This document shows positions 23,259 through 60,312 of a DNA stretch of 64,000 nt, piece by piece. A program made the translations under genes and the position numbers. Each line of letters starts with the position of its first letter. The first letter of the stretch is position 1. Below the pieces are notes generated by a model. It had not been told where the DNA came from and searched no databases. It saw only the letters and a list, made by a program, of their open reading frames with translations. Location of the stretch: sequence record MK327941.1; one strand, written 5' to 3'. The stretch is from Escherichia phage vB_EcoM_G37-3.

Positions 23259-25579
<2,321 letters not shown>

Positions 25580-25610
25580 CGATAATGCATAAAAAGATGA
25601 GGAAATTCTA

Positions 25611-27608
25611 ATGACTCTATTATCACCGGGTTTCGAAACGAAAGAAACTACTCTCTCCACTACCATTGTGCAATCTGCGACTGGTCGCGCGGCACTGGTG
25701 GGTAAATTCCAATGGGGTCCAGCTTTCCAGATTGTTCAAGTAACTAATGAAGTTGAATTAGTTAATAAATTTGGTCAGCCGGATAATAACACCGCAGACT
25801 ATTTCATGAGCGGGGCTAACTTCCTCCAGTATGGCAATGACCTGCGTGTTGTTCGTGTACTCAATAAAGAAAAAGCAAAAAACGCAACTGTCCTAGCTGG
25901 TAACGTAGAGTTTGAAATCACAAACGAAGGTTCTAACTACAAAGTAGGCGATTCAATTAAAGTAAAATACAATCGTCAGGATGTTGAAACCGCTGGCAAA
26001 GTAACCAAAGTAGATACCGAAGGTAAAATTAAAGGTATTTTCATCCCAACCGGGAAAATCATTTCTCTGGCTAAATCCATTGGTGTTTACCCTAATCTGG
26101 ATGGGTTTACCGTAGAAATCACTTCCGGCACTGGTAACTCAACTGCGGCAATTACCATTTCCAAAATTGTAACCGATTCCGGTCTTCTCTTAACGGATCT
26201 GGAAACTTCCCGTGCCAATATCACAAATCAAACTTTCTTGACTAAACTCAAGAAATATGATATGCCAGCGGTAAGTGCAATCTATGCGGGTGAGATCGGG
26301 GACTCTCTGGAAGTCGAGATCCTAGCACGTAGTGCGTTTAAGAACACCGCACCGGATCTGACAATGTATCCTTACGGCGGTACTCGCACCGCAGCACGCA
26401 ACCTGATTCCATATGCACCGCAGAATGATAATCAATATGCGTTTATTGTTCGTCGTGATGGTGTTGTGGTAGAATCCTATGTACTGTCTACTCTGAAAGG
26501 GGATAAAGACGTATACGGCAATTCTATCTATATGGACGACTTCTTTGCTCGTGGTTCTAGCCAGTACATCTATGCAACCGCTCAGGGCTGGGTAGATGGT
26601 TTCAGTGGTATTATCTCTCTTGCTGGTGGTGTGTCTGCTAACGAAGCAACGATCGGTGGAGTTGGTGCTGATCCGTTCATCGGTGCGATGATGCAAGGTT
26701 GGGATCTGTTTGCTGAACGAGAATCTATTCACGTAAACCTGTTGATTGCTGGTGCATGTGCTGGCGAAGGCGATGCGTTCTCTACCGTACAGAAACATGC
26801 TGTTTCCATCGGTGATGAGCGTCAGGATTGCTTAGTAATGGTTTCTCCGCCGCGTAGCACTGTTGTTAATATTCCGGTGACTACTGCAATTGATAACCTG
26901 ATTGCATGGCGCGAAGGTTCAGGAAACTATAATGAAAACAACATGAACATTAATACCACTTACGCGGTTATTGATGGTAACTACAAATATCAGTATGACA
27001 AATACAACGACGTAAACCGTTGGGTTCCGTTGGCTGCTGATATTGCTGGTTTGTGCGCTCGTACTGATGCTGTATCCCAGCCGTGGATGAGTCCGGCAGG
27101 TTATAACCGTGGTCAGATCATGAACGTGGTTAAACTGGCAATTGAGCCTCGTAAGGCGCACCGCGATCGTCTGTATCAGGCCGCAATTAACCCGGTAATC
27201 GGTGCTGGCGGTGAAGGGTTTATCCTAATGGGTGATAAAACCGCTACGACTGTTCCTAGCCCGTTTGACCGCATTAACGTTCGTCGTCTGTTTAACATGC
27301 TGAAAAAGAATATCGGCGATTCAAGCAAATACAAACTGTTTGAAAACAACGATAACTTTACTCGCGCTTCCTTCCGTATGGAGGTTTCGCAATATCTCAG
27401 CACGATTCGCTCTCTGGGTGGCATTTATGACTTCCGAGTACAATGCGACACCACGAATAACACGCCGGATGTAATTGATCGTAACGAATTTGTTGCTAGT
27501 ATGTTCATCAAACCAGCAAAATCGATCAACTATATCATGCTCAATTTCACTGCTGTTGCAACTGGTTCTGATTTTGACGAAATTATCGGTCCAGCTAACC
27601 AGGCATAA
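25611..27608 (+). CDS. 18: tail sheath protein gp18
   Basis: 665 aa (T4 659); position. Confidence 0.9.
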   Translation: MTLLSPGFETKETTLSTTIVQSATGRAALVGKFQWGPAFQIVQVTNEVELVNKFGQPDNNTADYFMSGANFLQYGNDLRVVRVLNKEKAKNATVLAGNVEFEITNEGSNYKVGDSIKVKYNRQDVETAGKVTKVDTEGKIKGIFIPTGKIISLAKSIGVYPNLDGFTVEITSGTGNSTAAITISKIVTDSGLLLTDLETSRANITNQTFLTKLKKYDMPAVSAIYAGEIGDSLEVEILARSAFKNTAPDLTMYPYGGTRTAARNLIPYAPQNDNQYAFIVRRDGVVVESYVLSTLKGDKDVYGNSIYMDDFFARGSSQYIYATAQGWVDGFSGIISLAGGVSANEATIGGVGADPFIGAMMQGWDLFAERESIHVNLLIAGACAGEGDAFSTVQKHAVSIGDERQDCLVMVSPPRSTVVNIPVTTAIDNLIAWREGSGNYNENNMNINTTYAVIDGNYKYQYDKYNDVNRWVPLAADIAGLCARTDAVSQPWMSPAGYNRGQIMNVVKLAIEPRKAHRDRLYQAAINPVIGAGGEGFILMGDKTATTVPSPFDRINVRRLFNMLKKNIGDSSKYKLFENNDNFTRASFRMEVSQYLSTIRSLGGIYDFRVQCDTTNNTPDVIDRNEFVASMFIKPAKSINYIMLNFTAVATGSDFDEIIGPANQA

Positions 27609-33779: not shown

Positions 33780-34142
33780 AGGTTGCAAGCCTATATTCTA
33801 TTTGGAGCGAAAATAGATACACACAACAAAGACAGGAAGATGCAGAACATCGGTGGGTTGCGATCCTAAATCCGGTGGCTATGATATGTGATTGATTTTG
33901 ATGCGGGATTTATTAAAACACAACAAACAATTCCACCAATTTTCGTAGTAACTGCATGGCAAAGGACCAATGAATGAGATGAGCGTTCATGCTGTGATAT
34001 TGGGTCGGATAGATTTGGTAGATATACAGATCTGGTGTATGCCGACCTTGTTATGACATTCCAGCGTGACGCTAGCGGTAATTTTTTGGTTTTGGTACGC
34101 TGTTCCCTGAATTAACCCAAAATTCTCCATAAGGAGGAATGC

Positions 34143-37779: not shown

Positions 37780-38990
37780 TTAAGCAGGATGCGTTTCACG
37801 AATGCGTAGAACTCGCTCTAACGTCGCTCGGTCCAGCTTATGTAACTCTTTGGAATGATACATGAAACCATTGCGAGATTCCATGCAAGTGCAATCACTA
37901 TATTTTTCTTCCGCTGCCGCGATCGTCTCCAGATCTTTGGCGTACTTGCTGGTTGAATAAACTTCTCGATCACGCCACTCTAACCCAGCCTCATTGAATT
38001 TAACAATCTCGTCAAATACCCACCATCCAATGTAGATAAATGAAGTTTTGCGCCACGGGATCGGGTGTACGTAACGAAACATTTTAACAACTTCCATTGA
38101 ACATTTTCGGCTTGTACTTGCTGCAACTTCTACTGTTTCATCTTCGATCTGTTGATATAGTTTAGCAACACACCAGAATTTGGCTGTGTCATCGTAAGTA
38201 GCACTCTCTTTGAACAGATGACCGTCTGGCATGATAGAAAATCCTTCCAGTGCTTCGCCGACCTCACTACCGATTAGAGTCGGTGACGGTTGCCCTTCGC
38301 GCTGCAAATACCAGTTATATTTGATCGTCAATTAGGCATACCGCTAGAATCGCCTACAATGTCCTCTGACACAACATAATTAAGTGATATCTCATTACCT
38401 AGTGCCACGGTCTTTGATTCCACCACATCCTGATCTACGTTCATTGTTGCCAGCATGATTTTAGTCGATGCGCTAGCGGCTGAATCTTCCGACTCGCCCC
38501 ACTTTTACAGTATACACGCCGTTTTTATCTGCTGTAAATTCTTGGATCGTAATATCCTTTTTTGTGTCTATAACGTCATCGCCCTTACTCCAACTATAAT
38601 GTAGTTCATAGTTGTCTGCTGGAGTCTTCCCACCAGAAAAATTGACTGTTGCATGTAATTCTACGTCTGTTTGTGATGATACGTAGAATGCTGCGGTTCG
38701 GTGATATTTACGATTAATGCAGCTTCTTCCATGAGGAAAACTTCAGATTCTACTGATGTCATCGTATCGGTATCTTGTACCGTTACTTTATAGCTACCCG
38801 CATTTTCACTTGTTGCGTCTGCTACAGTTAGCGTAGCTGTGCTATTTTCATGCGGTTGGTCGTCTTTTGTCCATGTATATGTCAAATTGCTGGGTAATGG
38901 TTCGTCACCCGCTACAGTCGCCGTTAAGGTGAAACCATCTCCAGCAAGAAAACATCTTTTGTTAGATTGTATTGATACTGTGAAAGCCAT
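37780..38990 (-). pseudogene. hoc: hoc (outer capsid decoration protein) split over four reading-frame segments
   Basis: Track ORFs 38661..38990 (Ig-like: LTYTWTKDDQ..SYKVTV) and 37780..38331 (FRYVHPIPWRKTSFIYIGWWVFDEI..ESRNGF resembles T4 Hoc C-terminal capsid-binding domain); the 330-bp gap translates as further Ig-like segments in two other frames. Confidence 0.7.
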
Positions 38991-39085
38991 ATAAAGCCAC
39001 TCCCATCGAAAATCCGAATTTAATTAATTGAAATAGTTGATTGTCATCAACCAGATAACCATTGCGAGATTCCAATACATGAGTA

Positions 39086-39250
39086 TTAGAATAGTGATGC
39101 AACGAGGCCGAAATAGTATCGATCTCGTCTGGGTATTTGTTCTGCTATAAAGTCTGCTGTACTAACAACAATCTTTAACAGAAGTGGATGACCAACGGAG
39201 CCATAAACCGGATCTTCTGTTTGATGTAATACATTGATTTTGTTAGACAT
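39086..39250 (-). CDS. hypothetical small protein (54 aa from internal ATG)
   Basis: Track ORF 39086..39274; GGGAG SD before ATG 39250. Confidence 0.4.
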   Translation of the reverse strand: MSNKINVLHQTEDPVYGSVGHPLLLKIVVSTADFIAEQIPRRDRYYFGLVASLF

Positions 39251-39330
39251 GTAGTTCTCCCTTTTTAATTGCATAACGGAACTACAATTAAAATTATAAC
39301 AAATATTTCACAACTTTTATCACCCAAAAA

Positions 39331-40056
39331 TTACTTGAGTGTGTGGAATTGGCTATGTTTAGTCTCTCGCACCTTGACAGACCCATCGCGTTTGATATAA
39401 TAGATCAGTGACTTGAGGGTGTCGTGTACATACGCGTGTGGGAAACGCTCTGGATACTTCTTCCAATCTGGAGTATTAACGATCCAGTCGAAAATCCACC
39501 ACGGGCAGGAGTAGTAACCACGACCGCCACCGATCAAACAAATGGTTGGACGGAAACCAGTAAGATCGCAAAATGAATCAGTGTCATGTGCAGGAGAACG
39601 ATGTTCGGCTTCGTCAGAGAAAATGTTTGCTACCGGAGATTTCACTTTAACTTCCGGTGCTTCTTCAACATCTGACTTAACTTCTTCGACCACTGGTTCA
39701 ACTGCTGGAGATTCTTCTTTTGTTTCTTCAATGACGATCTCAGGTTCTTTCATTGCTTCAACCAGAGACGGATCAACTTCGTCGAATACTACTTTATCAT
39801 CTGCGGTGTCTGCTGCCAGAATAAGATCGTTAATACTGGTTCCTTCTGCCGGAGTTTCTTCTTCCATTTCGGAAGCCAGTTTAGTTAATTCGGTTTCTAC
39901 GAACTCGATCATGTTCTCTAGTGAGAACGTCTTTTTGACCTTAATATCAAATTGTTTTGCGTAGTCCGCTAATTCTGTTTTAGCGGTTTTCTGTGCTTCT
40001 TTGTCGTCGGACGCCGCAATAGCGCGGAGTTCTTCGAAATATTCTTTATCAAACAT
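39331..40056 (-). CDS. acidic protein at the T4 inh position (possible inhibitor of prohead protease)
   Basis: 241 aa; Glu-rich middle; position upstream of hoc as inh in T4 (from memory); identity not verified. Confidence 0.4.
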   Translation of the reverse strand: MFDKEYFEELRAIAASDDKEAQKTAKTELADYAKQFDIKVKKTFSLENMIEFVETELTKLASEMEEETPAEGTSINDLILAADTADDKVVFDEVDPSLVEAMKEPEIVIEETKEESPAVEPVVEEVKSDVEEAPEVKVKSPVANIFSDEAEHRSPAHDTDSFCDLTGFRPTICLIGGGRGYYSCPWWIFDWIVNTPDWKKYPERFPHAYVHDTLKSLIYYIKRDGSVKVRETKHSQFHTLK

Positions 40057-40082
40057 GTTATTCTCCTGATTGGGGGTGTTTG

Positions 40083-40090
40083 TATAAATA
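40083..40090 (+). promoter_or_regulatory. late promoter motif TATAAATA upstream of uvsW
   Basis: Exact motif about 37 nt upstream of ATG 40127. Confidence 0.5.
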
Positions 40091-40126
40091 TTTGTATACT
40101 GTATTTATTGAGTGAGGCTATTCGCT

Positions 40127-41814
40127 ATGCAAGATATTAAATTCACTTTCTGAACTACTCCCATGTTCAAATTGAATGTAGCGATTCAATTTTATTAGAA
40201 ATGCGAGATTATTTTAGTTTTGAAGTCGAGGGAGCGCGGTTTCAAAAAAGATTTAAGTATGGTGGATGGGATGGGCGTATTCGTCTTTTAGATTACAACG
40301 GAAAGCTGCCAATCGGTCTAACTAAAACCGTGGGAATCTTCGCTAAAAATATGGGCTATAGCGTATGGGTAGATCCTCGCTTATTCGAAAAAGAACAAGT
40401 TACAGAAGAAGAAATTACAAAATGGTGTAATAACTTAGAATTATATTCCGGTGCTAACAGGATCACCCCTCATTGGTATCAATCAAAGGCCGTCTTTGAA
40501 GGTATTTCATCATAAACGCCGTATGTTAGTTTTGCCTACGTCCGCTGGTAAATCTGCGATTGCTTGTATGTTGTCTCGTTGGTACTTAGAGAATTACGAA
40601 GGGAAAGTGTTGATCATCGTTCCTACCACGTCGCTAGTGCTGCAAATGCGTGATGACTTTGTTGATTATCGCCAGTTTCCTTATGAAGCAATTCATACTA
40701 TCATGAGCGGTACTAGTAAACACGTAGGTGATCGCCTGATCGTTGTTAGTACGTGGCAATCTGCATGTAAACAACCTAGTGAGTGGTTCCAACAATTCGG
40801 GATGGTTATTGTTGACGAATGTCACAAGGCCACTGCTAAAACCTGCTAAACATCGTTACTGATATGGATCATTGTCAATTTAAGATCGGCATGACTGGTT
40901 CCCCTCGTGACGGGAAAGCTAACATGATGCAGTATGTCGGGCTTTTCGGTGATATTTCTAAGATCGTGAGTATTGACCGCCTGATGGAAGAAGGGCAGGT
41001 GACAAAACTGAAAATTAACTGTCTTTTCCTTCGTTATACCGATGAGGAATAGCGCGGTTAAGGGGCGAGAATATGCGGAAGAGATCAAGTACATTACATC
41101 TAACCCACGACGAAATAAGTTTGCTTGTAATTTGGCGCTAAAACTCGCTAAGAAGGGCGAAAACGTATTCCTGATGTTCCGCAACACTAAGCACTGAAAA
41201 TTAACTGTCTTTTCCTTCGTTATACCGATGAGGAATGTAGCGCGGTTAAGGGGCGAGAATATGCGGAAGAGATCAAGTACATTACATCTAACCCACGACG
41301 AAATAAGTTTGCTTGTAATTTGGCGCTAAAACTCGCTAAGAAGGGCGAAAACGTATTCCTGATGTTCCGCAACACTAAGCACGGAAAACTTATGTATGAT
41401 GCGTTACAGAAGGTACACGACAAGGTTTATTATATTGACGGTGGAGTTAAGACAGAAGAACGTGATGAATTTAAGAAATTAGCGGAAGGGGAAACCGGGA
41501 TCATTTGCGTTGCATCCTATGGTGTGTTCTCTACTGGTGTTTCCATCAAGAATTTGCATCATGTTATTTTCGGTCATCCAGTGAAGGAATCAACTATCGT
41601 TCGTCAGAGTATCGGTCGTGCATTGCGTAAACATGGTTCTAAGGATATTGCAACGGTCTGGGATCTTATAGATCATCTGGCGGTGAAGACAAAGAGCAAT
41701 AATGCTAAGAAACAGTTTAGCCACCTTAATTATGCTCTTAAACATGCGCTTGAAAGAATAAAAATTTACAACACCGATCGATTCGAATATGTCACGAAAA
41801 CAATCGAGATTTAA
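40127..41814 (+). pseudogene. uvsW: uvsW (RNA-DNA/DNA-DNA helicase) disrupted by at least three frameshifts and an internal tandem duplication
   Basis: Pieces MQDIK (40127), frame A to 40515, frame B to 40849, frame C 40840..41052, frame C 41191..41814; each aligns to consecutive segments of T4 UvsW as recalled (FSFE..RF..RFKYGGWDGRIRLLDYN, LPTSAGKS, DECH, SPRDGKANMMQYVG, HGSKDIATVWDLID). Confidence 0.75.
41007..41380 (+). repeat. perfect tandem duplication inside uvsW (copy 1 41007-41192, 186 bp; copy 2 41193-41380, 188 bp)
   Basis: Copies identical except a 2-bp (gt) deletion in copy 1 that creates TAG at 41050-41052. Confidence 0.85.
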
Positions 41815-41818
41815 TAAA

Positions 41819-41842
41819 TAGGGGCTTTAATGCCCCTTTATT
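41819..41842 (+). terminator. rho-independent terminator after uvsW
   Basis: aggggc-tttaat-gcccct followed by T-rich tract. Confidence 0.55.
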
Positions 41843-41857
41843 CTACGGAGATTAAAA

Positions 41858-42094
41858 ATGATTAGCTTTAAACGTTTTTTGGTTGAGGCCGCTATTGACG
41901 GTTTCATGCGTAAGATTTATTCTTGTAATACTATCGAGGGATTAAATGAACTTGAGGCATATTATGAGAAGCGCAAGAAAGAAACAGAATTGAAACCTGC
42001 TGATGATATTTCGATCCGTGATGCCATCGCTGGACGCCGTAAGCAATTGGAAGCGGACAACGAGCCAGAAGAGGAGCCGGAAGAGGATTTTTAA
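41858..42094 (+). CDS. hypothetical acidic protein at the uvsW.1 position
   Basis: 78 aa ORF track; GGAG SD; position matches T4 uvsW.1. Confidence 0.5.
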   Translation: MISFKRFLVEAAIDGFMRKIYSCNTIEGLNELEAYYEKRKKETELKPADDISIRDAIAGRRKQLEADNEPEEEPEEDF

Positions 42095-42100
42095 GATATA

Positions 42101-42130
42101 AAAAAGCCCCATCAATGATGGGGCAAAATA
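42101..42130. terminator. bidirectional terminator hairpin gcccc-atcaatgat-ggggc flanked by A/T runs
   Basis: Lies between convergent forward and reverse genes. Confidence 0.55.
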
Positions 42131-42157
42131 AACCAATTAAAATCGGTTATCAACAAA

Positions 42158-42334
42158 TTACATTAACAGCATTGTTTGCTCTACGAGTTGTTCTTGTTCT
42201 TCGCCGTTCGCATCTTCACTAATCGAACGTTCTGTTACTAGCTGTAAGCAGTAGCCAGTGTGAACAACGCCGTTTTCTGTCTGGACGGATAACGCATCCT
42301 CGACAGGTTGTTTACAACAAATACAGATTTTCAT
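42158..42334 (-). CDS. hypothetical small Cys-rich protein (58 aa), downstream of uvsY
   Basis: GGAGGA SD before ATG 42334; MKICICCKQPVEDALSVQ...; below track cutoff. Confidence 0.45.
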   Translation of the reverse strand: MKICICCKQPVEDALSVQTENGVVHTGYCLQLVTERSISEDANGEEQEQLVEQTMLLM

Positions 42335-42355
42335 AAAAATTCCTCCTGCATGTAT

Positions 42356-42763
42356 TTAGCGACCAGATTCCAGCATACGCAATTCTATAGCATTCTTGAT
42401 CGCAAAGCCACGAGATTTAACGATATCAAGTGCGCGACCAGCGAAATCCATTACCATCTGGTAATATGCAATTTTCGTATCAAGCGGTAAGATCTCGTCG
42501 TCTGCTGCCATGACAACTTTCAATTCTGATTTCTCATATTCAGCACGACACCAGTCATCACTACGGTTAGTGTAAAAGTCAAGACGATTTTTCATAGCCT
42601 TTTTCTTTTTAGCCTCAAGAGCAATCGTCTCTCTTTTCGCCTCGCTGTAAATCCTTAACCACTTTGAGTATACTACCGGATTATTCAGCGCCTCCCATTG
42701 CAACTTAGTCGCATCGATCTTCATGTCAGATTCTAATTGTTCTTTCAAATCGTTTAGGTCCAT
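42356..42763 (-). CDS. uvsY: recombination mediator protein UvsY
   Basis: 135 aa; ATKLQWEALNNPVVYSKWL and KSRGFAIKNAIELRMLESG resemble T4 UvsY. Confidence 0.9.
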   Translation of the reverse strand: MDLNDLKEQLESDMKIDATKLQWEALNNPVVYSKWLRIYSEAKRETIALEAKKKKAMKNRLDFYTNRSDDWCRAEYEKSELKVVMAADDEILPLDTKIAYYQMVMDFAGRALDIVKSRGFAIKNAIELRMLESGR

Positions 42764-42810
42764 AATATCCCCTTATTCACACTAAGACCTATATCATATC
42801 ACACACAAAA

Positions 42811-43197
42811 TCACTTTGCAAGTCTTATGCGTAGTTGTTCAAGATCATCTGGGTTATCTATTACTGAAAAGTAGATTGATACTATGATTGAGTTATCGTC
42901 GTACTGCGGAGTTACTTCTACTGTCAGGTTTCGGACCCGTGGTTCATAGTTTCGGATCGCCTCATTGATGTTTTTTGATAAGGTATCCACCGTCAGTGGG
43001 TTCATGTTCTCAAACAGTGATTTATTGAGATCGCATCCAAACAGTGGATCAAATGGACGAGATCCCTTGCGAGTAGTCACGATCAGTAGAATAGAATCTT
43101 TAACCGCTTTAATCCCTATGTTCTTTTTAACGTCGTTATTCCACGATCTGGATATATTGAGATCCAAATCAGTATACATCTGATTAATAGTTGCCAT
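42811..43197 (-). CDS. 25: baseplate wedge protein gp25
   Basis: Start at ATG 43197 (track start 43209 is TTG); TTRKGSRPFDP.FGCDL and FSVIDNPDD resemble T4 gp25. Confidence 0.85.
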   Translation of the reverse strand: MATINQMYTDLDLNISRSWNNDVKKNIGIKAVKDSILLIVTTRKGSRPFDPLFGCDLNKSLFENMNPLTVDTLSKNINEAIRNYEPRVRNLTVEVTPQYDDNSIIVSIYFSVIDNPDDLEQLRIRLAK

Positions 43198-43205
43198 GTT
43201 ATACC

Positions 43206-43835
43206 TCAAAGAATTTTAAGGAAACTGGATAGACCTGATAATGAATATACACCAGATTCCCCGCATTCGCACTTGATCGGTACTGCCAGCGTGATTTGAT
43301 TTCTTGTTAGCTCGTCGATCACTTCTTCCACTTTATCCGTGGTAAGCATATCCAGCACGCGGTCAAAGTCCTGTGCGTTCAGGTCGTCTATATTGAATTG
43401 CTGATCGCCGATCACGATATATTCGATACATGCAATTACCATCTGCATAATATCAACATCTTCTGTAAACTTAGGTTGACGAAATTTGATTTTTACTTGC
43501 CCTAAGTCCAGAATATACGGTTCAACTTCTGGTATCTGTGTGCGTGAAACATCAAGAGAGTATACTTTCTCTTTATTGCATACACCACACACCCAAGTAG
43601 CATCAATTTTCATCTTATTGAGGCTGTGACACCATAAGAGAAGAAAAATATATTCTGCTTCGCATTTCTCTAGCTCTAATGCATTGATCCCCGTACATTC
43701 ATGTATGATCTCTATAACAACCTCTGACAGCTTGCCAGTCTCTTTTGCTGCTACCAGTTTTTGAAATTCGCCGAAGGTGAAAGCACGGGCGTGTATCAAC
43801 TTTTCGCCTAATTGGATCTTGAAAAAGTATTGCAT
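43206..43835 (-). CDS. 26: baseplate hub subunit gp26
   Basis: 209 aa (T4 208); position. Confidence 0.75.
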   Translation of the reverse strand: MQYFFKIQLGEKLIHARAFTFGEFQKLVAAKETGKLSEVVIEIIHECTGINALELEKCEAEYIFLLLWCHSLNKMKIDATWVCGVCNKEKVYSLDVSRTQIPEVEPYILDLGQVKIKFRQPKFTEDVDIMQMVIACIEYIVIGDQQFNIDDLNAQDFDRVLDMLTTDKVEEVIDELTRNQITLAVPIKCECGESGVYSLSGLSSFLKIL

Positions 43836-43877
43836 AATAAAACACCCTTTATAAACACATAGAATTATTTAGTATTT

Positions 43878-43885
43878 TATAAATA
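43878..43885 (+). promoter_or_regulatory. late promoter motif TATAAATA upstream of gene 51
   Basis: Exact motif about 21 nt upstream of ATG 43906 in the divergent 26/51 spacer. Confidence 0.5.
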
Positions 43886-43905
43886 CCCGAAAGGGGGATT
43901 ATACC

Positions 43906-44676
43906 ATGAATATTATCCGAATAAAACTACCGGAAGGTGTGCAGAGATTTAAACCATTCACGGTAAAAGATTATAGAGATTTCCTTCTGGTGTCAACTGA
44001 AATTAAGATGAATCCAGAAGAAGAACAAACGATTCTTGATGAGCTATTAGAAGAAATATATCCAGACGTAGATCCGGCATTTCGTGAATATATTTTCCTG
44101 AATGTCTTTACTAGTTCAATTGGTAAAACTAAGATACCGCTTTGTTTTACTTGCCCGACTTGCAACAAAGAAAGAAGAATGTTGCTTAACTTACAGGTTG
44201 AAGCACTAAAACCAATCGTTCTAGAGGCCGCAGGGCTTAAAATAACTTTCCGGTATGTTAAACCATCAACCGACTATGCAAAAACGTTTCTGGATGCGAT
44301 AGAGCGTGTATCTGATGGTATTAATGACTATCTATGGACTGAATTGCCGGAAGAAGTTAGAGAACAGGTTATCGATTCAATCTCATTTTCTGAATTTGAA
44401 GAAGTTGTTAAGCAGATGCACACAATCAAGATCGAACAAAAGATATCTTGTTGTGAGAGTCATGACCTGAAATACATAGGTCTTCTTCCATTATTCAAAT
44501 TGTTGTTGAATCCAGATGAGTTATTCATCTTTTATCGAATAAACCATCTATTGGCAAAATCAAATTATTCTATCAGTGATCTTATGGACATGTTACCCGT
44601 CGAGAGAAACATTGCACTGACACTGGTCGAGAAAGACGTAAAAGAGGCAAACAATGCAAAGAACGGGGTTTCCTAA
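43906..44676 (+). CDS. 51: baseplate hub assembly protein gp51
   Basis: 256 aa (T4 249); position. Confidence 0.7.
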   Translation: MNIIRIKLPEGVQRFKPFTVKDYRDFLLVSTEIKMNPEEEQTILDELLEEIYPDVDPAFREYIFLNVFTSSIGKTKIPLCFTCPTCNKERRMLLNLQVEALKPIVLEAAGLKITFRYVKPSTDYAKTFLDAIERVSDGINDYLWTELPEEVREQVIDSISFSEFEEVVKQMHTIKIEQKISCCESHDLKYIGLLPLFKLLLNPDELFIFYRINHLLAKSNYSISDLMDMLPVERNIALTLVEKDVKEANNAKNGVS

Positions 44677-45763
44677 TGTCTCAATAAAACTTTATCAGGA
44701 TTATGAGGCATTTCTAAATCATCGCTTTATAGAATTGGGTGCTACCTTTGTTACAATGACTCTGCGTGATTCGATTCGTGGGGTGAACGAAGGATTGTTG
44801 CAATTCTATGATAATAAGGCGATGCATACAAAATTAAACGGGAGAGAGATCATTCAGATTTCGCTATCCACTGCTAATACAGATGAAGTGTTTAACCGAA
44901 TCTATGGGATCTCTCATAGTAATGTAACAATTGACCAAAAATCCGACAACATTTTAACATTCCAGTTAAAGAGCTATCACGAATCATTAAACCTTAAATT
45001 TTCTCGCTCATTGACAAATAACGCGGTTAATAACGTAACTAGCATGATTGATGCCATCTATAAGGAAGTTCCTTTATGGAAACCTACTATAAAGGGTGAT
45101 AACGTTGTTATTCCTCGTTGTCCGTGGGTTAGTACCATAAATGACTATATGGATTTTGTGAGGGCATACGGGCAAAGCGTAGAAACCGAGTCTTTCGTGT
45201 ATTGCTGGGAAGATTTTGATGGTATAACGATCGCTGGACACGATACAATATTAAAAAATGAGCCAATACCAGCTATAATCTGTGAGCCTAGACTCATGGG
45301 GCAGTTTATTGATATGTCGCCTAATCTGATGGTTTTTAATTTCGAGTGGCAGACTAAGAGCAATGCTAAAGTTAAAAATTCATTTAGCAATGTGACATAC
45401 ACAACTATTGATTTTGTTACTAAGCAGTATAATAAAATTATTGTTGGTAATGGGGATAACATTGCACACTTTGCTCATGGTGGCGCTTATGGCGATTTAA
45501 CTTATAAGAATGCGTTTTTGGAAGGTTCTAAACTTGCCACAATAGAACAATATGATTCATATGCTACCGCCGTGTGTCACGGTAATTTTTCGTTGCGCCC
45601 CGGTATGGTTATTCGATTCTTTGATGAGAAGCAACAAGCACGCAATGATTTTATTGTTGACGAAGTTGTGCATGAAATTAGCCGAGAGCAATCATTAACT
45701 CACCTGTATATGATCGGTAACAGCGAAGAATTACAGGAAGTCAAATTTGAAGGTAAGATATAA
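44654..45763 (+). CDS. 27: baseplate hub subunit gp27
   Basis: 369 aa; MQRTGFPNVSIKLYQDYEAF.NHRFIELGAT..TMTLRDS resembles T4 gp27 N-terminus. Confidence 0.8.
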   Translation: MQRTGFPNVSIKLYQDYEAFLNHRFIELGATFVTMTLRDSIRGVNEGLLQFYDNKAMHTKLNGREIIQISLSTANTDEVFNRIYGISHSNVTIDQKSDNILTFQLKSYHESLNLKFSRSLTNNAVNNVTSMIDAIYKEVPLWKPTIKGDNVVIPRCPWVSTINDYMDFVRAYGQSVETESFVYCWEDFDGITIAGHDTILKNEPIPAIICEPRLMGQFIDMSPNLMVFNFEWQTKSNAKVKNSFSNVTYTTIDFVTKQYNKIIVGNGDNIAHFAHGGAYGDLTYKNAFLEGSKLATIEQYDSYATAVCHGNFSLRPGMVIRFFDEKQQARNDFIVDEVVHEISREQSLTHLYMIGNSEELQEVKFEGKI

Positions 45764-46281
45764 TGACAGAAACTAAACCTATGTTAAAATTTGTTGTTCC
45801 TGTAAAAAAATTAGAGATAAACGGGAAACATATCAAGATCCCAAAAATGGGGATTAAGCAACATCGATTATTAAAAGATGTTCGTAGCTGTGATGAAACA
45901 TTAAAGATTCTTCTTGATTCAATCTGTCCTGGGTTAAACGCTGCCGAGTCTGAATTGGTTATGCTTAACCTTTGTGCGTTTAATGGTAAGTGTCTGGAAG
46001 AAAAAGATGGTCTTAAGCTGTCTGATGTGTATATTTGTACAGAGACTGAATTTACTTTAAATGGTAAAGTCTTTAAATTTAAAAATCCAATGTATACTTC
46101 TGACCCCATTATCGATGACGCTGATTTCTTGAGTCATCATTATCACGATCCTAGTGTAGACTTCCATGATTTCCCAGCTTTTATTATGGATTGGGCTACA
46201 GGATTAAGAAAAACTATTGCACTGGATACACCGGAAGGTACTATCTATGGTGGAATTAACATATTGGATCGCCTATCATGA
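45763..46281 (+). CDS. 28: baseplate hub distal subunit gp28
   Basis: 172 aa (T4 177); position. Confidence 0.7.
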   Translation: MTETKPMLKFVVPVKKLEINGKHIKIPKMGIKQHRLLKDVRSCDETLKILLDSICPGLNAAESELVMLNLCAFNGKCLEEKDGLKLSDVYICTETEFTLNGKVFKFKNPMYTSDPIIDDADFLSHHYHDPSVDFHDFPAFIMDWATGLRKTIALDTPEGTIYGGINILDRLS

Positions 46282-46305
46282 ATGACGCATTAACATCATT
46301 TCGGG

Positions 46306-53775: not shown

Positions 53776-53809
53776 TTGATACTCCTTAGTAGTTCGTTTC
53801 GGTATGTGT

Positions 53810-53838
53810 ATTATAGGGGATCGATGATCCCCTGTCAA
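53810..53838 (-). promoter_or_regulatory. PeSL-like early promoter cassette: TTGACA, 17-nt palindromic spacer (ggggatc..gatcccc), TATAAT, conserved leader
   Basis: Reverse complement gives TTGACAggggatcatcgatccccTATAAT; A-tract upstream. Confidence 0.6.
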
Positions 53839-53846
53839 CAACTTTT

Positions 53847-54365
53847 TTAGTTATTTTTTAATTGCTCATCTTGCAATAGGGCAATCACATGCTGGCGATG
53901 TTCTTCCGATTGAGGCACACCGAAAAAGTTTGTTTTGTAGAAATACTCTAATCGGTCTTCTCGTGTGCTCTCTTCCATCATGATCGCGGGTAGTCCGAGA
54001 TTTCGGAAACGTCGCTTTTCTGCTGGCGTAAAATCACTGTAATACAACATAGAATCATCATTACCAGCAATGCTAAACTCATCTTTCATAAAGGAGAATA
54101 TTGCGTTTAAACGCTGTTTACCGTCCACGATTTCGATCTCATAGCGAGAGCCATCATCAATCTTAGCCATTGCGATAGCACCAACCGGAAAATCATTAAT
54201 CAGGTTTTCGATAAACATACGTTTGTTTTCGGTGTCCCATACCAAAGGACGCTGATAATCTGGGTTCATGTTGATATATCCATCTTCTAACCACGCCTCA
54301 TAAACAGAGATGACAAAGTTTTTAGTATTGGTATAGTAACGGCGTTTAGGCGTTAAACGGTTCAT
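53847..54365 (-). CDS. DUF262 / ParB-like nucleotide-binding domain protein
   Basis: Start at ATG 54365 (AGGAG SD); DYQRPLVWD..FIENL and VDGKQRLNAI match DUF262 hallmarks (QR, DGQQR-like). Confidence 0.55.
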   Translation of the reverse strand: MNRLTPKRRYYTNTKNFVISVYEAWLEDGYINMNPDYQRPLVWDTENKRMFIENLINDFPVGAIAMAKIDDGSRYEIEIVDGKQRLNAIFSFMKDEFSIAGNDDSMLYYSDFTPAEKRRFRNLGLPAIMMEESTREDRLEYFYKTNFFGVPQSEEHRQHVIALLQDEQLKNN

Positions 54366-54366
54366 G

Positions 54367-54699
54367 TTATAGTCTCCTGAATGGATCATCACGTAAATCA
54401 ATATCTTTTAAGAACTCATCCCATGAATGGCGGATATTGTTCTTAATTCTCCAGATAAGCGCAGGGATTGAACGCTCTCCCATCTGGAAGTATGGATCAT
54501 ATGATCCGTATGCCCAATATGCTACTACAATTCCACAATCAGAGCAATAGTATTCTATTTCACTTGCTGGCGACCAAAGTCCATCAATATGATCGGTGAT
54601 CTTGCTTTCGATGTTATGGCTATGACAATCAGGGCAACGGATGCAATGACCTTGTTTATCGTAATTTGACGTTAGCGAATACTTAAACAATCTCATCAT
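54367..54699 (-). CDS. hypothetical zinc-ribbon protein
   Basis: 110 aa; CIRCPDC..H and CSDCG Cys pairs; coupled to flanking genes. Confidence 0.55.
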   Translation of the reverse strand: MMRLFKYSLTSNYDKQGHCIRCPDCHSHNIESKITDHIDGLWSPASEIEYYCSDCGIVVAYWAYGSYDPYFQMGERSIPALIWRIKNNIRHSWDEFLKDIDLRDDPFRRL

Positions 54700-55412
54700 A
54701 GATCCTTATTGGCTTCAAATACTGCCTTTGCGAATCCTCGCGGGGTAAGTGACCTTATAGTCTTTGTTTTCGTTCCTTTCCCGCCTAGCTTAGAATGCTG
54801 TTTACTGTACCCTTTATTAATCTGCAAAGGTTTCTTTTCTGGCATCATAAAGCCTTGTCCGGTCCATAAGCAAGTCTTTTTCGGGTACATATCACGGGCG
54901 GCAATATACTCAGGAAACGTAGGATGCTTATCATCTTCCGGCAAATAACCGCCATATTCCCACGGATGAAACATATAATCAGGCTTACGCCACATGCTAG
55001 AGATAACGCTTACAGGATTCTCTATCATGTAGGGAACTCCTAGCCATTCACCCAAATAAGCGGTTATTTTAGCTGCCCGTACATCATGAACTTGAATCAA
55101 TGGTCCTTGTTCTCGTTTCTTTCGTTCAAAGTGCGCAGCGCCACTAACAGCTAAATTGGTGCACGGTGGGAATGCAAAGATAATATCCGGTTTCCCCCAT
55201 TCAAGGTCCATTGCTCTTTCCAGCCAGTTCAAATCAATCCATGTGTTTACATAGGTAATGTTTGGATGTTCAAATCTGGTATTATACTTTTTGTATGTGC
55301 CGTGGTCGCCATCATCAGCATTAAAGCAGATCACCTTATGACCTGCTTTAGCCCATTCTAGCCCCATTATCCCCGATCCGTCAAAGTTACAGAATATTAA
55401 TTTTTGTTTCAT
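54696..55412 (-). CDS. compact DNA (cytosine-5)-methyltransferase-like protein
   Basis: 238 aa; motif I-like FDGSGIMG, PC motif FAFPPCTNLAVSG, ENV-like YMIENPV, C-terminal RSLTPRGFAKAV. Confidence 0.55.
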   Translation of the reverse strand: MKQKLIFCNFDGSGIMGLEWAKAGHKVICFNADDGDHGTYKKYNTRFEHPNITYVNTWIDLNWLERAMDLEWGKPDIIFAFPPCTNLAVSGAAHFERKKREQGPLIQVHDVRAAKITAYLGEWLGVPYMIENPVSVISSMWRKPDYMFHPWEYGGYLPEDDKHPTFPEYIAARDMYPKKTCLWTGQGFMMPEKKPLQINKGYSKQHSKLGGKGTKTKTIRSLTPRGFAKAVFEANKDL

Positions 55413-55654
55413 ATACGCCCCTTTAATCCAACACAGATTTTAGAAGGTTCTTTGCCGTGCCACATTAAGTAAAGTCCGTTAATGCGGCCTTGTTTTGTAT
55501 ATGATTCTTTTCTGATCTTCTTATAGTGTCGTGTTTCCTCAGCCGATTGTTTAGAATACCAATCATAAAGGAAGATGAACAAAGGCCACCCATTAGCGGC
55601 CTTAATGCAGTTATTCAAAAATTCCTTATTGCGTTTAATTAATTTTCTTTTCAC
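55409..55654 (-). CDS. hypothetical protein (81 aa)
   Basis: ORF track; coupled overlaps. Confidence 0.5.
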   Translation of the reverse strand: MKRKLIKRNKEFLNNCIKAANGWPLFIFLYDWYSKQSAEETRHYKKIRKESYTKQGRINGLYLMWHGKEPSKICVGLKGRI

Positions 55655-55902
55655 GCTGCCCCCATTGGTTTGATAGTAACAGAATCTAAAAGACCTTTGT
55701 TAGCCAGTTCGCGGCAAGTTTTCAGATCCGCAACTTCCCAACCAGCCGCAATCAGGTTATCAATCAGGCTGTTAGCAACTTCTTCGCTCATGAAAGAGCA
55801 CTGTTTGCCGATGGTGTAGCGTACACGCTGTAATTTCAGTTTACGGAAGCCTTTAACGTTCAGGTCTTTAGCGATTTTCTTTGCGGTTTCGATGTTAGCC
55901 AT
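55651..55902 (-). CDS. hypothetical protein (83 aa)
   Basis: ORF track; GGAG SD; first gene after promoter cassette. Confidence 0.55.
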   Translation of the reverse strand: MANIETAKKIAKDLNVKGFRKLKLQRVRYTIGKQCSFMSEEVANSLIDNLIAAGWEVADLKTCRELANKGLLDSVTIKPMGAA

Positions 55903-55942
55903 TGTTTGATTCTCCTAAGTGGTATCTCGTCTTGATGGTTGT

Positions 55943-55971
55943 ATTGTAGGGGAGTTATCCTCCCCTGTCAA
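55943..55971 (-). promoter_or_regulatory. PeSL-like early promoter cassette (TTGACA, ggggag..ctcccc spacer, TACAAT)
   Basis: Read in sequence. Confidence 0.55.
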
Positions 55972-55985
55972 CACTTTTTATAAAA

Positions 55986-56153
55986 TTATTTGTTAATTTC
56001 TGGTGCGTTGCTAGGATAGTAACCTTCTTTAACACCCAGATATTTTGCAACCATCCCTACAATCTTCTGTGCTACTACAATGTCAAATTTCAGATAATCT
56101 TCGCCGTGGGTTTCAATGATATATGCTTCACATGCTGCTTTAGTCTCGAACAT
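55986..56153 (-). CDS. hypothetical small protein (55 aa), copy 1 of a duplicated gene
   Basis: MFETKAACEAYIIETHGEDYLKFDIVVAQKIVGMVAKYLGVKEGYYPSNAPEINK; about 89% identical to 59246..59413. Confidence 0.55.
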   Translation of the reverse strand: MFETKAACEAYIIETHGEDYLKFDIVVAQKIVGMVAKYLGVKEGYYPSNAPEINK

Positions 56154-56186
56154 TTTGATTCTCCTATTTCGTTTCGTTATGTGTGT

Positions 56187-56215
56187 ATTATAGGGGATCT
56201 CCCGATCCCCGTCAA
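56187..56215 (-). promoter_or_regulatory. PeSL-like early promoter cassette (TTGACG, ggggatc..gatcccc spacer, TATAAT)
   Basis: Read in sequence. Confidence 0.55.
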
Positions 56216-56229
56216 CAACTTTTTTAAAA

Positions 56230-56511
56230 TTATTCGTGATTAGTTTCGATGTTGTGCATTTTGCACCAGTTCAGCCAATCACCCAGATCCTGATAGTTAA
56301 TGCTTTTATCTGCTGCCATCGTTTTTGTCTTGATACCCATATGTGCGTTATGAGTAAGCATTTTTACAGTGAACTCAATTTTATCACCTTTAGCTTTAAC
56401 ATCAACCAGTTTGGTCCACTGGCTACCAGCGCCGCGAATGTTCATACCAACGATGTTTCCGATGTATGCTTCTTTGTTTTTCAGGATTTCGGTTGCTTTG
56501 ATGAATTTCAT
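56230..56511 (-). CDS. hypothetical protein (93 aa)
   Basis: ORF track; SD. Confidence 0.55.
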   Translation of the reverse strand: MKFIKATEILKNKEAYIGNIVGMNIRGAGSQWTKLVDVKAKGDKIEFTVKMLTHNAHMGIKTKTMAADKSINYQDLGDWLNWCKMHNIETNHE

Positions 56512-56544
56512 TTTTGATTCTCCAGTTCGTTTCGGTATGTGTGT

Positions 56545-56573
56545 ATTATGCTATGTTCTTACTTTGGTGTCAA
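56545..56573 (-). promoter_or_regulatory. early promoter cassette without palindrome (TTGACA-N17-CATAAT)
   Basis: Read in sequence; same leader as the PeSL-like elements. Confidence 0.5.
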
Positions 56574-56581
56574 CAACTTTT

Positions 56582-56851
56582 TTAGATATTTTCAGAAATA
56601 AATTTTAAAACTTGACGTAAATGTTTCTCATCTTTGATAGTCGCCGGAAGTTCTTCTTTTACTTCCTGTGCAAGATAGATATTTCCGTTCCAAGTGAAAG
56701 ATCCGTCTTCGTTTACGCGATAGCTGAACATCCACTCGCAATCATTTTCGATTTCATATACACACAGAAGGGTGTAATCGTTAAAGCTATTGATTTCAAG
56801 GTCGAAGCCGTGACGTTTTGCAAAGTTGGTAGTGGTTTTAGTCAGAGCCAT
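56582..56851 (-). CDS. hypothetical protein (89 aa)
   Basis: ORF track; SD. Confidence 0.55.
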   Translation of the reverse strand: MALTKTTTNFAKRHGFDLEINSFNDYTLLCVYEIENDCEWMFSYRVNEDGSFTWNGNIYLAQEVKEELPATIKDEKHLRQVLKFISENI

Positions 56852-56891
56852 TGTTTGATTCTCCTAAATGGTATCTCGTTTCGATGTGTGT

Positions 56892-56920
56892 ATTATGCTA
56901 TAGGCCGGATCTGGTGTCAA
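56892..56920 (-). promoter_or_regulatory. early promoter cassette (TTGACA-N17-CATAAT)
   Basis: Read in sequence. Confidence 0.5.
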
Positions 56921-56935
56921 TGCCTTTTTTAAAAA

Positions 56936-56955
56936 AGCCGACACTAAGGTCGGCT
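56936..56955 (-). terminator. rho-independent terminator after reverse gene 56963..57271
   Basis: agccgac-ctta-gtcggct followed by U-run on reverse strand. Confidence 0.55.
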
Positions 56956-56962
56956 AATAAAA

Positions 56963-57271
56963 TCATTTAGACAAGTAATCATTCTGTGCAATACGGTCGG
57001 CGTATGCTGGTGTTATGTCAATCGCCAGCACTTTAACGCGTGCTTTCTTGCGACCTGGGTTTTCTCGTAACCAGTGCTCATGACCGTGAACATTTTTATA
57101 CTTTGATGCTTCTTCAAATGTACGGATCGGACCTGGGTAATCAGCGTAAAGGATCTCTAGGTCTTCGGTGATGTAAAAATATACATCGTAATTACTGTTC
57201 TCTAGTTTAAGCAGAGAGTTGCGAAATTGTGGTAAATTCTCGCGGGTAAATTCAACTACAAGATTTTTCAT
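56963..57271 (-). CDS. hypothetical protein, paralogue family A (YxYITED..HGHEHW..VLAIDI)
   Basis: 102 aa ORF track; shared motifs with six other ORFs. Confidence 0.55.
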   Translation of the reverse strand: MKNLVVEFTRENLPQFRNSLLKLENSNYDVYFYITEDLEILYADYPGPIRTFEEASKYKNVHGHEHWLRENPGRKKARVKVLAIDITPAYADRIAQNDYLSK

Positions 57272-57296
57272 AGTGATATCCTCATTCAGATAGATT

Positions 57297-57316
57297 AAAA
57301 GGGGGCTTAACGCCCC
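57297..57316 (-). terminator. hairpin plus U-run after reverse gene 57322..57609
   Basis: Reverse strand ggggcg-ttaa-gccccc then TTTT. Confidence 0.45.
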
Positions 57317-57321
57317 GTATA

Positions 57322-57609
57322 TTAAAACAGTCCTTCCTGTACACCGTAGTAGAGTTCATCGCTGATAATTTCATTAATGCGACGGTGTGCATATTCCTGA
57401 TTTGCGAAGTTATCAGCAAGTTCTACTTTAGTTTCGCCGTCATGAGTCCATTTAGTGATAACTTTACCATCTGCAAATTTGAAGTTGAACTCTTTAGCTA
57501 CTGCATCGCGTACCAGACGTGCGAACTTGTTGTTACGGATTGCATTATCGGTTTCGTGTGCAGCGTGAGCGAATTTGTTAACTTTCAGAGTGATAGTAAT
57601 GTATGCCAT
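57322..57609 (-). CDS. hypothetical protein, paralogue family B
   Basis: 95 aa; shares N..A.R..V.KA.AKEFN.K with 60851..61162. Confidence 0.55.
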   Translation of the reverse strand: MAYITITLKVNKFAHAAHETDNAIRNNKFARLVRDAVAKEFNFKFADGKVITKWTHDGETKVELADNFANQEYAHRRINEIISDELYYGVQEGLF

Positions 57610-57655
57610 AATTTGATTCTCCTAGTTAGAAAGTGTATCTCGTTTCGATGGGGAT

Positions 57656-57684
57656 ATTATGCTATATCCCCGATCCGGTGTCAA
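57656..57684 (-). promoter_or_regulatory. PeSL-like early promoter cassette
   Basis: TTGACA, 17-nt spacer, CATAAT on reverse strand. Confidence 0.5.
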
Positions 57685-57690
57685 CACTTT

Positions 57691-57969
57691 TTATAAAATA
57701 ATTTTTTGATATTTTTCTATGATGTTCGTGTAAGTCACATCAACCGCTAGCACCGTTGCTTCGAATCCACCGTTTAGCCAATGGCTATGATCATGATCGT
57801 GAAAGAAACCTAGACCAGTACGAAGACCTTCTTTATATTCTGCGCGTACATTCAGTTTGTCGTCGATAAACAGATAAAACCATGAATTTTTACTAGGATT
57901 GATGATACAACCTTTCAGATTAGGGAGAATATCACGACTAAGAATAAACTTATCACCTACTTTGAGCAT
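57691..57969 (-). CDS. hypothetical protein, paralogue family A
   Basis: Start at internal ATG 57969 (GAGGAAA SD); FYLFIDDKLNV..HDHDHSHW..VLAVDV. Confidence 0.5.
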   Translation of the reverse strand: MLKVGDKFILSRDILPNLKGCIINPSKNSWFYLFIDDKLNVRAEYKEGLRTGLGFFHDHDHSHWLNGGFEATVLAVDVTYTNIIEKYQKIIL

Positions 57970-57983
57970 AATATTTTCCTCAC

Positions 57984-58291
57984 TTATAAAGTTTGACCGT
58001 TGTTTTTCGCGTAATGCTGAATGCGTGCTTGATCTGCTTCCGCTGGTGATAGATTCCATGCGATCACTACAACTTCTGACGCATCATGATCATTATCACT
58101 TACCCAATGATTATGATTCATACAATTGTTTGCTATCGCGTGAGCAAATGATCTCATTACCGGAGACGTATAATCATAGTAACGGATTTTCAGATTTTCA
58201 TCAACGTACAAGTAGATCGTATACGGCTTATATTCAGTAACCAGTAACAGACAGTTACGCAATTCTGGGAAAATCTTTTTAGTTAATTTCA
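57984..58291 (-). CDS. hypothetical protein, paralogue family A
   Basis: Start at internal ATG 58291 (GAGGAT SD); YLYVDENLKI..NHNHW..VVIAWNL. Confidence 0.5.
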
Positions 58292-58293
58292 TT

Positions 58294-58512
58294 TTATAAT
58301 CCTCGGTCGCGGCTATAGTACACGGTACGCCATACAATTTCATGTTTCGTGTCGCTCCAGCACACGATCTCATTTACTCTTAAATCTTTGTTATCAACAA
58401 AAGATGAACATTGTGACGCTTCTTTCATCATTTTATCTGCTGTTTTCTCATCAAATACAGCACAGATTTCTTTATACACTCGATAATCTTTGAATTGACT
58501 CTGGATACTCAT
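58294..58512 (-). CDS. hypothetical protein, paralogue family C
   Basis: Start at ATG 58512; FKDYRVYKEI..ADKMMKEASQCSSF. Confidence 0.45.
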   Translation of the reverse strand: MSIQSQFKDYRVYKEICAVFDEKTADKMMKEASQCSSFVDNKDLRVNEIVCWSDTKHEIVWRTVYYSRDRGL

Positions 58513-58514
58513 AA

Positions 58515-58730
58515 TTAACACCAATCAAGAGTTTTTGAGAAAACCTCTATCCATTGTTGAGTATATGCGGTTTCTTTCCATGATACAATACCAGTAGAAT
58601 AATGGTTTTTGTTTCCAGAAAAGGACGGGCATTTTGATGCATCTTCCATCATCTTTTCGGCGAACTCTGGTTCGTATACCCGCAAAATCTGTTGATATGC
58701 TTTGTATTCTTTAAATTTGCTCATAATCAT
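58515..58730 (-). CDS. hypothetical protein, paralogue family C
   Basis: ORF track 71 aa; FKEYKAYQQI..AEKMMEDASKCPSF. Confidence 0.5.
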   Translation of the reverse strand: MIMSKFKEYKAYQQILRVYEPEFAEKMMEDASKCPSFSGNKNHYSTGIVSWKETAYTQQWIEVFSKTLDWC

Positions 58731-58989: not shown

Positions 58990-59001
58990 AATATATTCCT
59001 C

Positions 59002-59181: not shown

Positions 59182-59213
59182 TTTGATTCTCCGTTTGTTG
59201 TCTTGATGGGAGT

Positions 59214-59242
59214 ATCTTACTACTCCCTTTAATCATTGTCAA
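59214..59242 (-). promoter_or_regulatory. PeSL-like early promoter cassette (TTGACA, gggagta..tactccc spacer, TAAGAT)
   Basis: Read in sequence. Confidence 0.5.
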
Positions 59243-59245
59243 CGA

Positions 59246-59413: not shown

Positions 59414-59447
59414 TTTTGATTCTCCTATATCTCGTTGGTATGTGTGT

Positions 59448-60311: not shown

Positions 60312-60312
60312 G

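Follow-up and report, generated by a model that had tools for sequence, protein, structure and literature searches.

The UvsW protein of phage T4 is an SF2 helicase that unwinds R-loops and migrates branched DNA. Its gene is non-essential in T4, as is hoc; genes 6, 15 and 29 are essential there, and T4 gene 60 is the precedent for translational bypassing. Structures of T4 UvsW are available (PDB 2OCA and 1RIF), and in the genus Krischvirus orthologues are present in RB49, Phi1 and GoldenSnicker, among others. Frameshifted uvsW is described for T4 mutants that escape Retron-Eco11: each of them has two deletions in uvsW that shift its frame (PMC12746101). They are verified products of laboratory selection and are described without lesions in T4-essential genes. 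Another described phenomenon belongs to genome assembly: when HGAP assembles a circular molecule, the contig ends overlap, are nearly identical and are of low quality, and small indels persist unless the sequence is re-polished after circularisation (Circlator, PMC4699355).

Escherichia phage vB_EcoM_G37-3 (here G37-3; MK327941; Korf et al., 2019; DSMZ stock DSM 103248) was isolated from pig manure, and its source paper gives a genome of 167,832 bp at 456x coverage, isolation and propagation as a plaque-forming phage, and T4-like morphology with normal head and tail dimensions (PMC6563267). According to the same paper, the genomes of that study were obtained either by PacBio RSII (HGAP3, with 7–8 barcoded libraries per SMRT cell) or by Illumina (SPAdes --careful, k=55), and the authors re-arranged the assembled contigs of permuted T4-like genomes (PMC6563267), so that former contig ends are now internal to the records. 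In gene 15 of a sister genome, G2494 (MK327935), a stretch of exactly 55 nt stands twice, head to tail and without a mismatch, which shifts the frame of the gene. Since 55 is the stated SPAdes k, the G2494 gene 15 repeat is an untrimmed circular overlap.

We analysed a window of 64,000 nt of the G37-3 record, one strand, which covers the structural genes from gene 2 to gene 30.3 of a T4-type Krischvirus similar to RB49 and Phi1. The disrupted uvsW locus was placed at 40127–41814 on the plus strand, by tblastn of Phi1 UvsW and by the repaired ORF, and spans 1688 nt, against 1503 nt in relatives. It is preceded by inh (39331–40056, minus strand) and followed by uvsW.1 (41858–42094, plus strand), which is intact, encodes a protein 100% identical to that of Phi1 and is found in many public contigs; the window has the gene order inh - uvsW - uvsW.1 - uvsY.-2 - uvsY in common with Phi1, GoldenSnicker and all further relatives examined. 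When Phi1 UvsW was searched against the window by tblastn, the matches were three collinear stretches in frames 1, 2 and 1, the short MQDIK start being in frame 2. The repaired protein scores for the Pfam domains UvsW_N (2.8e-42), ResIII (2e-21), DEAD (1.3e-12) and Helicase_C (1.8e-11), matching domains are also present in the separate fragments, and the translation shows PTSAGKS (motif I, GKS/T) and DECH (motif II, DExH). Against chain A of the T4 UvsW structure (PDB 2OCA) the repaired protein gave E=2.2e-196, with query residues 3–499 aligned to chain residues 2–501. By its domains, its end-to-end T4 homology and its genomic position the locus is a UvsW-type SF2 helicase gene; the first-pass annotation had recognised it as uvsW from fragments that each continue the T4 UvsW alignment, and the collinear pieces and the match to 2OCA agree. 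With four minimal repairs it encodes 500 aa with the domains of the T4 protein, and in sequence and gene order it is otherwise an ordinary Krischvirus uvsW.

The difference from uvsW of T4 and Krischvirus lies in the reading frame: as written, there is not one ORF of ~500 codons but six pieces, cut by indels of −1, +1, −1 and −2 nt and by a repeat of 186 nt. Positions 40050–42150 were aligned with GoldenSnicker (OR896832) and Phi1 (EF437941); alignments with 12 relatives and with three still closer contigs were made as well. The alignments with GoldenSnicker and Phi1 contain exactly three single-base length differences within uvsW. Three single-nucleotide frameshifts had been called in the first-pass annotation; all are present, at or a few bases from where they had been placed, and all are private. 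The −1 change reported in an A-run near 40140–40145 is A3 at 40139–40141 where all relatives have A4, so that the ATG at 40127 reads MQDIKFTF and then a stop. The +1 change reported near 40513 exists as an inserted T (T3 at 40505–40507, T2 in all relatives); 40513 itself is the start of the resulting stop, the reading frame ending ...EGISS and then TAA at 40513–40515. The remaining −1 change lies in the A-run 40838–40841 just as had been reported, A4 where all relatives have A5, and there the frame runs ...DECHKATAKTC and then TAA at 40847–40849. All three are on the plus strand. Taken together, the single-base events shift the frame by −1, which leaves uvsW unreadable as one protein, as had likewise been claimed. 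A comparison with the closest relatives had also been proposed, and none of those examined has any of the uvsW changes.

The repeat search found a head-to-tail duplication further downstream in uvsW, the sole tandem duplication in the 64 kb. Copy 1 (186 nt, 41007–41192, plus strand) is absent from all relatives aligned, and copy 2 (188 nt, 41193–41380, plus strand) is collinear with them. In an alignment of copy 1, copy 2 and GoldenSnicker, copy 1 has lost two nucleotides (GT) between 41050 and 41051 on the plus strand, making a TAG at 41050–41052. This deletion and the tandem duplication are two changes beyond the range that the first-pass annotation had covered. The junction, between 41192 and 41193, sits within an imperfect 8-nt repeat (ACTGAAAA / ACGGAAAA) with a 7/8 match, for which the background is ~7e-4 per register, or roughly 0.5–1% with neighbouring registers allowed. 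At 41092 and 41185 copy 1 has a C that is the strain's own and that recurs in copy 2 (41280 and 41373), GoldenSnicker and nearly all relatives having T; because both copies carry the strain's own variants, the duplication derives from this genome. Repair of the locus, by adding an A, dropping a T, adding an A and removing copy 1, yields exactly 1503 nt with an uninterrupted reading frame of 500 codons, which differs from GoldenSnicker at 19 of 1503 nt and in only 2 aa.

All uvsW lesions are private when set against more than 20 Krischvirus relatives. A single UvsW of 500 aa is annotated, or was obtained by gene calling, in GoldenSnicker, Phi1, G5211, G2494, G2248 and 18 loci from ENA, Logan and NCBI. 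All 55 full-length matches in the phage database (55/55) have an interval of 1915–1917 bp, which leaves no space for the duplication there. Exact-pattern scans of viral contigs gave no match for the duplication junction or for the three shifted sites, and two matches for a wild-type control pattern; the junction pattern likewise had no match in the metagenome and genome collections, nor had the site 3 pattern in the metagenome collection. No contig encoding the fragment products was found in the collections searched, and this phage region was absent from the E. coli genomes and plasmids searched. Together these results show that the lesions are common to no other public sequence among the collections searched.

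We screened the rest of the window for frame breaks by tblastn with 90 Phi1 proteins, and found further lesions. The hoc gene (head outer capsid protein; 37780–38990, minus strand) is broken by −1 changes in two A-runs, 38330–38331 and 38687–38688, and by the loss of CA (−2) between 38499 and 38500; the repaired ORF has 404 aa. Gene 6 (baseplate wedge, plus strand) has an isolated −2 change (AT) at 7590–7591, leaving a product of 549 of 634 aa; this deletion is the sole indel in ~31.7 kb relative to G5211 (MK327947), and between 5 and 32 kb of the window it and a single SNP are all that separates the two sequences. Such identity rules out a generally noisy assembly. Gene 29 (tail tape measure/hub, plus strand) has an isolated −2 change (CG) at 46301–46302, in codons 9–10, and its annotated product of 567 aa starts from Met11. 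A small hypothetical gene between genes 23 and 24, ORF161.1 (33992–34082, plus strand), is disrupted by private changes of +2 (33992–33994) and +1 (34082, in a T-run). Four disrupted genes were tested by minimal repair, uvsW, hoc, gene 6 and gene 29, and each became full-length again. Other dispensable genes are intact, namely inh, alt, wac, the homing endonucleases and most of ~30 small ORFs, ORF161.1 being the exception. The lesions are not confined to dispensable genes, as they should be in pseudogenes, since the genes for gp6 and gp29 also have 2-nt deletions. Selection has not filtered them: both products, essential in T4, are truncated in a viable phage.

The distribution of the changes is markedly uneven. 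The 64-kb window has 11 private small indels, 7 of them packed into 2.86 kb directly upstream of the junction (38330–41192; binomial P ~1e-7) and none in the 5.1 kb downstream (P ~8e-4); the downstream 5.1 kb equals Logan contig ERR3531442_95, save for one SNP, until the gene 29 deletion. An indel-free gap of 1.45 kb over inh is compatible with chance (roughly P=0.1, an estimate). Single-base events all lie in homopolymer runs; 2-nt events make up 5 of the 11, and two of these lie in dinucleotide repeats. Substitutions behave differently from indels. Between 37.7 and 43.3 kb there are 17 private ones, 13 of them genic (8 synonymous and 5 non-synonymous), and the three in inh are all synonymous. 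The private substitutions of uvsW number only 5 (3 synonymous; 2 non-synonymous, D103N and K463N), which is too few for dN/dS and no excess over neighbouring intact genes. The private substitutions look like ordinary, selection-filtered strain divergence, and only the indels are in excess; a dead gene decaying neutrally should have gained additional substitutions too. Recombination or mosaic breakpoints were also considered as the origin of the lesions: the block identical to a Logan contig does extend from the junction as far as the gp29 deletion, but the gp6 lesion lies deep within a perfect block, and this candidate was set aside.

By exact sequence look-up, the Inh and Alt proteins of the window are listed from G37-3 only, and Wac, gp24 and ORF164 have G37-3 accessions too. 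The same lesions can be followed into the GenBank proteins of G37-3, which include gp6 at 549 aa (QBO64735.1), gp29 at 567 aa (QBO64779.1, G37_3_00183) and a 109-aa N-terminal fragment of Hoc (QBO64768.1); the lesions thus belong to the public record MK327941, and the idea that they had been planted or introduced later was rejected. From inh (locus 00170, QBO64770) to gene 29 (locus 00183, QBO64779) there are four locus tags without a protein, as expected if no product was entered for four fragments of uvsW. In G2494 the same authors likewise gave the terminase gene no product, annotating it as "misc_feature similar to large terminase protein".

We judge, at a probability of roughly 0.7, that the uvsW lesions are artefacts of assembly or consensus calling. 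Several observations favour this reading: the excess is of indels only, they cluster on one side of the junction, gp6 and gp29 have lesions in a viable phage, contigs were re-arranged in the source study, and G2494 has a duplication of its own. The raw contig of the circularly permuted genome, probably a PacBio RSII/HGAP product, would have had both its ends within uvsW. When it was re-arranged to match published relatives, the ends would have been joined between 41192 and 41193 with their terminal overlap incompletely removed, giving the 188-nt repeat, and the poorly supported 3′ contig end (~38330–41192) would have been retained and not re-polished. Copy 1 of the duplication would then be the tail of this low-quality end, and indel errors in the consensus of the 3′ end would account for three changes in hoc, the three single-base changes in uvsW and the loss of 2 nt from the overlap copy that was kept. 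The actual phage would have an intact UvsW of 500 aa and an intact Hoc. We infer both that G37-3 is a PacBio-type case and that the junction marks former contig ends.

What the artefact reading leads one to look for is seen at the locus: a tandem duplication at a possible join, sequence rich in errors on one side of it and clean on the other, and a parallel in a genome from the same pipeline. Both G2494 gene 15 and G37-3 uvsW have a head-to-tail duplication that shifts the frame of a conserved gene, in a permuted T4-like genome that went through the same pipeline. They differ in that the repeat in G2494 is perfect and has the length of the SPAdes k, whereas that of G37-3 is imperfect (188/186 nt) and is flanked by indels on one side, as for HGAP ends and unlike a de Bruijn overlap, the platform of G37-3 being itself deduced. 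An imperfect repeat of this kind with a one-sided, indel-rich flank matches the described anatomy of HGAP contig ends. Of the phenomena compared, the closest is a circularisation join left un-repolished in a database record, with G2494 gene 15 as its direct parallel. The first-pass annotation had left a choice between pseudogenisation of a non-essential helicase and a locally error-prone sequence; the latter is better supported, by the indel-only excess, the one-sided clustering, the hits in gp6 and gp29 and the sister-genome duplication, and pseudogenisation is less so.

That uvsW was truly lost, perhaps in escaping a retron that senses UvsW, is unlikely, though it is the likeliest of the alternatives. 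Spelled out, it is that uvsW and hoc were truly inactivated, by a microhomology-mediated duplication of 188 bp or by one frameshift, and that slippage mutations then followed in the dead genes, a course of events that we think unlikely; selection might have acted because UvsW activity triggers abortive infection of the host, e.g. through a type III-A3 retron. The lesions do stand in a published record, that of a real isolate sequenced at 456x mean coverage; given this coverage and the 27 kb of identity to G5211, neither platform should produce isolated errors like those in gp6 and gp29. The 7/8 microhomology at the junction suggests a real microhomology-mediated duplication, unlike an arbitrary contig cut; indels in homopolymer runs and dinucleotide repeats are also the pattern of polymerase slippage, five 2-nt events among 11 would be an unusual spectrum for sequencing error, and 2 of the 5 private substitutions in uvsW are non-synonymous (D103N, K463N, as above). 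If G37-3 was one of the Illumina/SPAdes genomes, its reads must contain both the junction and the indels. The dispensability of uvsW and hoc in T4 argues in the same direction, as does a known defence that selects uvsW frameshift mutants; the gp29 lesion, lying just upstream of the in-frame Met11, might be tolerated. Nevertheless the resemblance of G37-3 to the T4 mutants that escape Retron-Eco11 (PMC12746101) is limited to a frameshifted uvsW, and exposure of G37-3 to such a defence is hypothetical. One lesion suffices to inactivate a gene, and 5 indels in uvsW and 3 in hoc, against 5 and 4 private substitutions, are far too indel-rich for neutral decay. Genuine inactivation also leaves the intactness of the other dispensable genes (ORF161.1 apart) and the abrupt end of the lesions at the duplication junction to be explained, the T4-essential gp6 and gp29 bear like lesions in a phage that is viable, and the sister genome proves that the pipeline leaves junction duplications within genes. 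That every lesion is real, making G37-3 a wild, viable Krischvirus without UvsW and Hoc, in which UvsW was lost by a retron-type escape and a gp6 shortened at its C terminus and a gp29 shortened at its N terminus are tolerated, seems to us quite improbable.

Intermediate cases were weighed as well. The duplication or another lesion may be real in all or part of the population, the assembler having broken the contig there and the other indels being contig-end errors; the junction microhomology favours a real template switch, the one-sided indel clustering points to a contig end there, and both copies bear the strain's own variants. This mixture requires two independent causes at one site, however, and its 188-nt unit is out of frame and by itself inactivates uvsW, so that it merges into genuine inactivation; we hold it to be very doubtful. 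Expression of uvsW despite the shifts, by programmed ribosomal frameshifting, bypassing or transcriptional slippage, has T4 gene 60 as a precedent and no support in this analysis. Recoding would have to correct three shifts that differ in sign, read past an in-frame TAG and deal with a 62-codon repeat, the runs are only 3–4 nt long, and all relatives examined have plain, unshifted sequence at the sites; on this anatomy and the unshifted relatives recoding was rejected, its chance being practically nil.

If the artefact reading is true, MK327941 misreports uvsW, hoc and the genes for gp6 and gp29 as broken, and MK327935 misreports gene 15. Records of this kind enter the pangenome, pseudogene and "accessory gene loss" statistics of T4-like phages, where they can be mistaken for natural loss of a helicase. 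A short tandem repeat with indels clustered on one side of it, inside otherwise perfect sequence, would be a practical signature of an un-repolished join. If instead the lesions are real, a wild phage genotype would be linked to escape from a helicase-sensing defence; it would be the first wild example of a retron-escape genotype so far confined to the laboratory, and would hint at a local indel-prone repair tract.

A wider indel cluster seemed to extend over 33.6–37.7 kb. Set against 13 relatives, most of the intergenic homopolymer differences in it are shared natural variation, only the changes at 33992 and 34082 being private, and the wider cluster was discarded. The A-run with a change at 37745 is variable among relatives too.

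Three deletions private to the window sequence (-1, -2 and -1) break hoc (window 37780-38990, - strand); repaired, the gene encodes a 404-aa Hoc resembling that of relatives. Some Krischvirus relatives (comparison loci L027, L028, L030, L032, L033 and L042) have a second Ig-domain gene, of 846 aa, in the inh-hoc interval; in L042, phage G2248, it lies at 39646-42186. The window lacks this second gene. A private replacement of several nucleotides at 39256-39260, where the + strand reads TCTCCC in place of ATCCTC, affects the ribosome-binding region of ORF168.1; the Shine-Dalgarno sequence becomes GGGAGA instead of GAGGA, and the length is unchanged.

Genes 6 and 29 encode baseplate/tail proteins and are essential in T4; each carries an isolated 2-nt deletion in sequence otherwise the same as that of relatives. 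The first (window 7590-7591) cuts gp6 to 549 of its 634 aa (QBO64735.1), and the second (46301-46302) leaves a gp29 of 567 aa that restarts at Met11 (QBO64779.1); GenBank lists both shortened proteins under phage vB_EcoM_G37-3.

We also found disrupted genes in a sister genome from the same study and pipeline, that of phage vB_EcoM_G2494 (MK327935). Gene 15, essential in T4, contains an exact head-to-tail duplication of 55 nt (two copies, 22835-22944) that shifts its frame; the repeat is exactly as long as the k that the authors set in SPAdes, so it is an untrimmed circular-contig overlap. In the large terminase gene (23905-27016), codons 255 and 256 are separated by an insertion of 1282 nt with intein-like boundaries, by their look (…DEC/VSGLT… and …SHN/CAF…). 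Since 1282 is not a multiple of 3, the two terminase halves lie in different frames; the sole annotation of this gene in MK327935 is 'similar to large terminase'.

The mosaicism of the window is extreme. A 27-kb block (5000-32000) has a single substitution relative to phage G5211, a Krischvirus of the same study, and another of 5.1 kb (41193-46301) is identical except for one SNP to Logan contig ERR3531442_95. The segments adjoining these blocks diverge by 1-12%. Relative to the Krischvirus Phi1, the window has additional endonuclease ORFs at 5083-5646 and 20987-21652. The former lies between genes 5.1 and 5.4, encodes an HNH endonuclease and is shared with G5211 and not with Phi1; the latter, flanked by genes 13 and 14, encodes a GIY-YIG/seg-like endonuclease with only 29% identity to Phi1 SegC.

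A DEAD/DEAH helicase gene with ~85% nucleotide identity to Krischvirus uvsW was found in an E. coli prophage at ycdX, where its neighbors are a recombinase-family gene and tail genes. Of 5426 complete E. coli genomes, 17 carry it, namely NZ_CP042903.1 (2918694-2920184) and 16 other chromosomes. This suggests that uvsW was exchanged recently between lytic T4-type and temperate phages.

Finally, an intergenic element of ~70 nt (…GTGTGTATTATAGGGGATC…GATCCCCTGTCAACAACTTTTTTA) occurs in 5-6 copies between small early ORFs at window 53776-61250; these are candidate promoter-early stem-loop cassettes, resembling those described in RB49-type phages.
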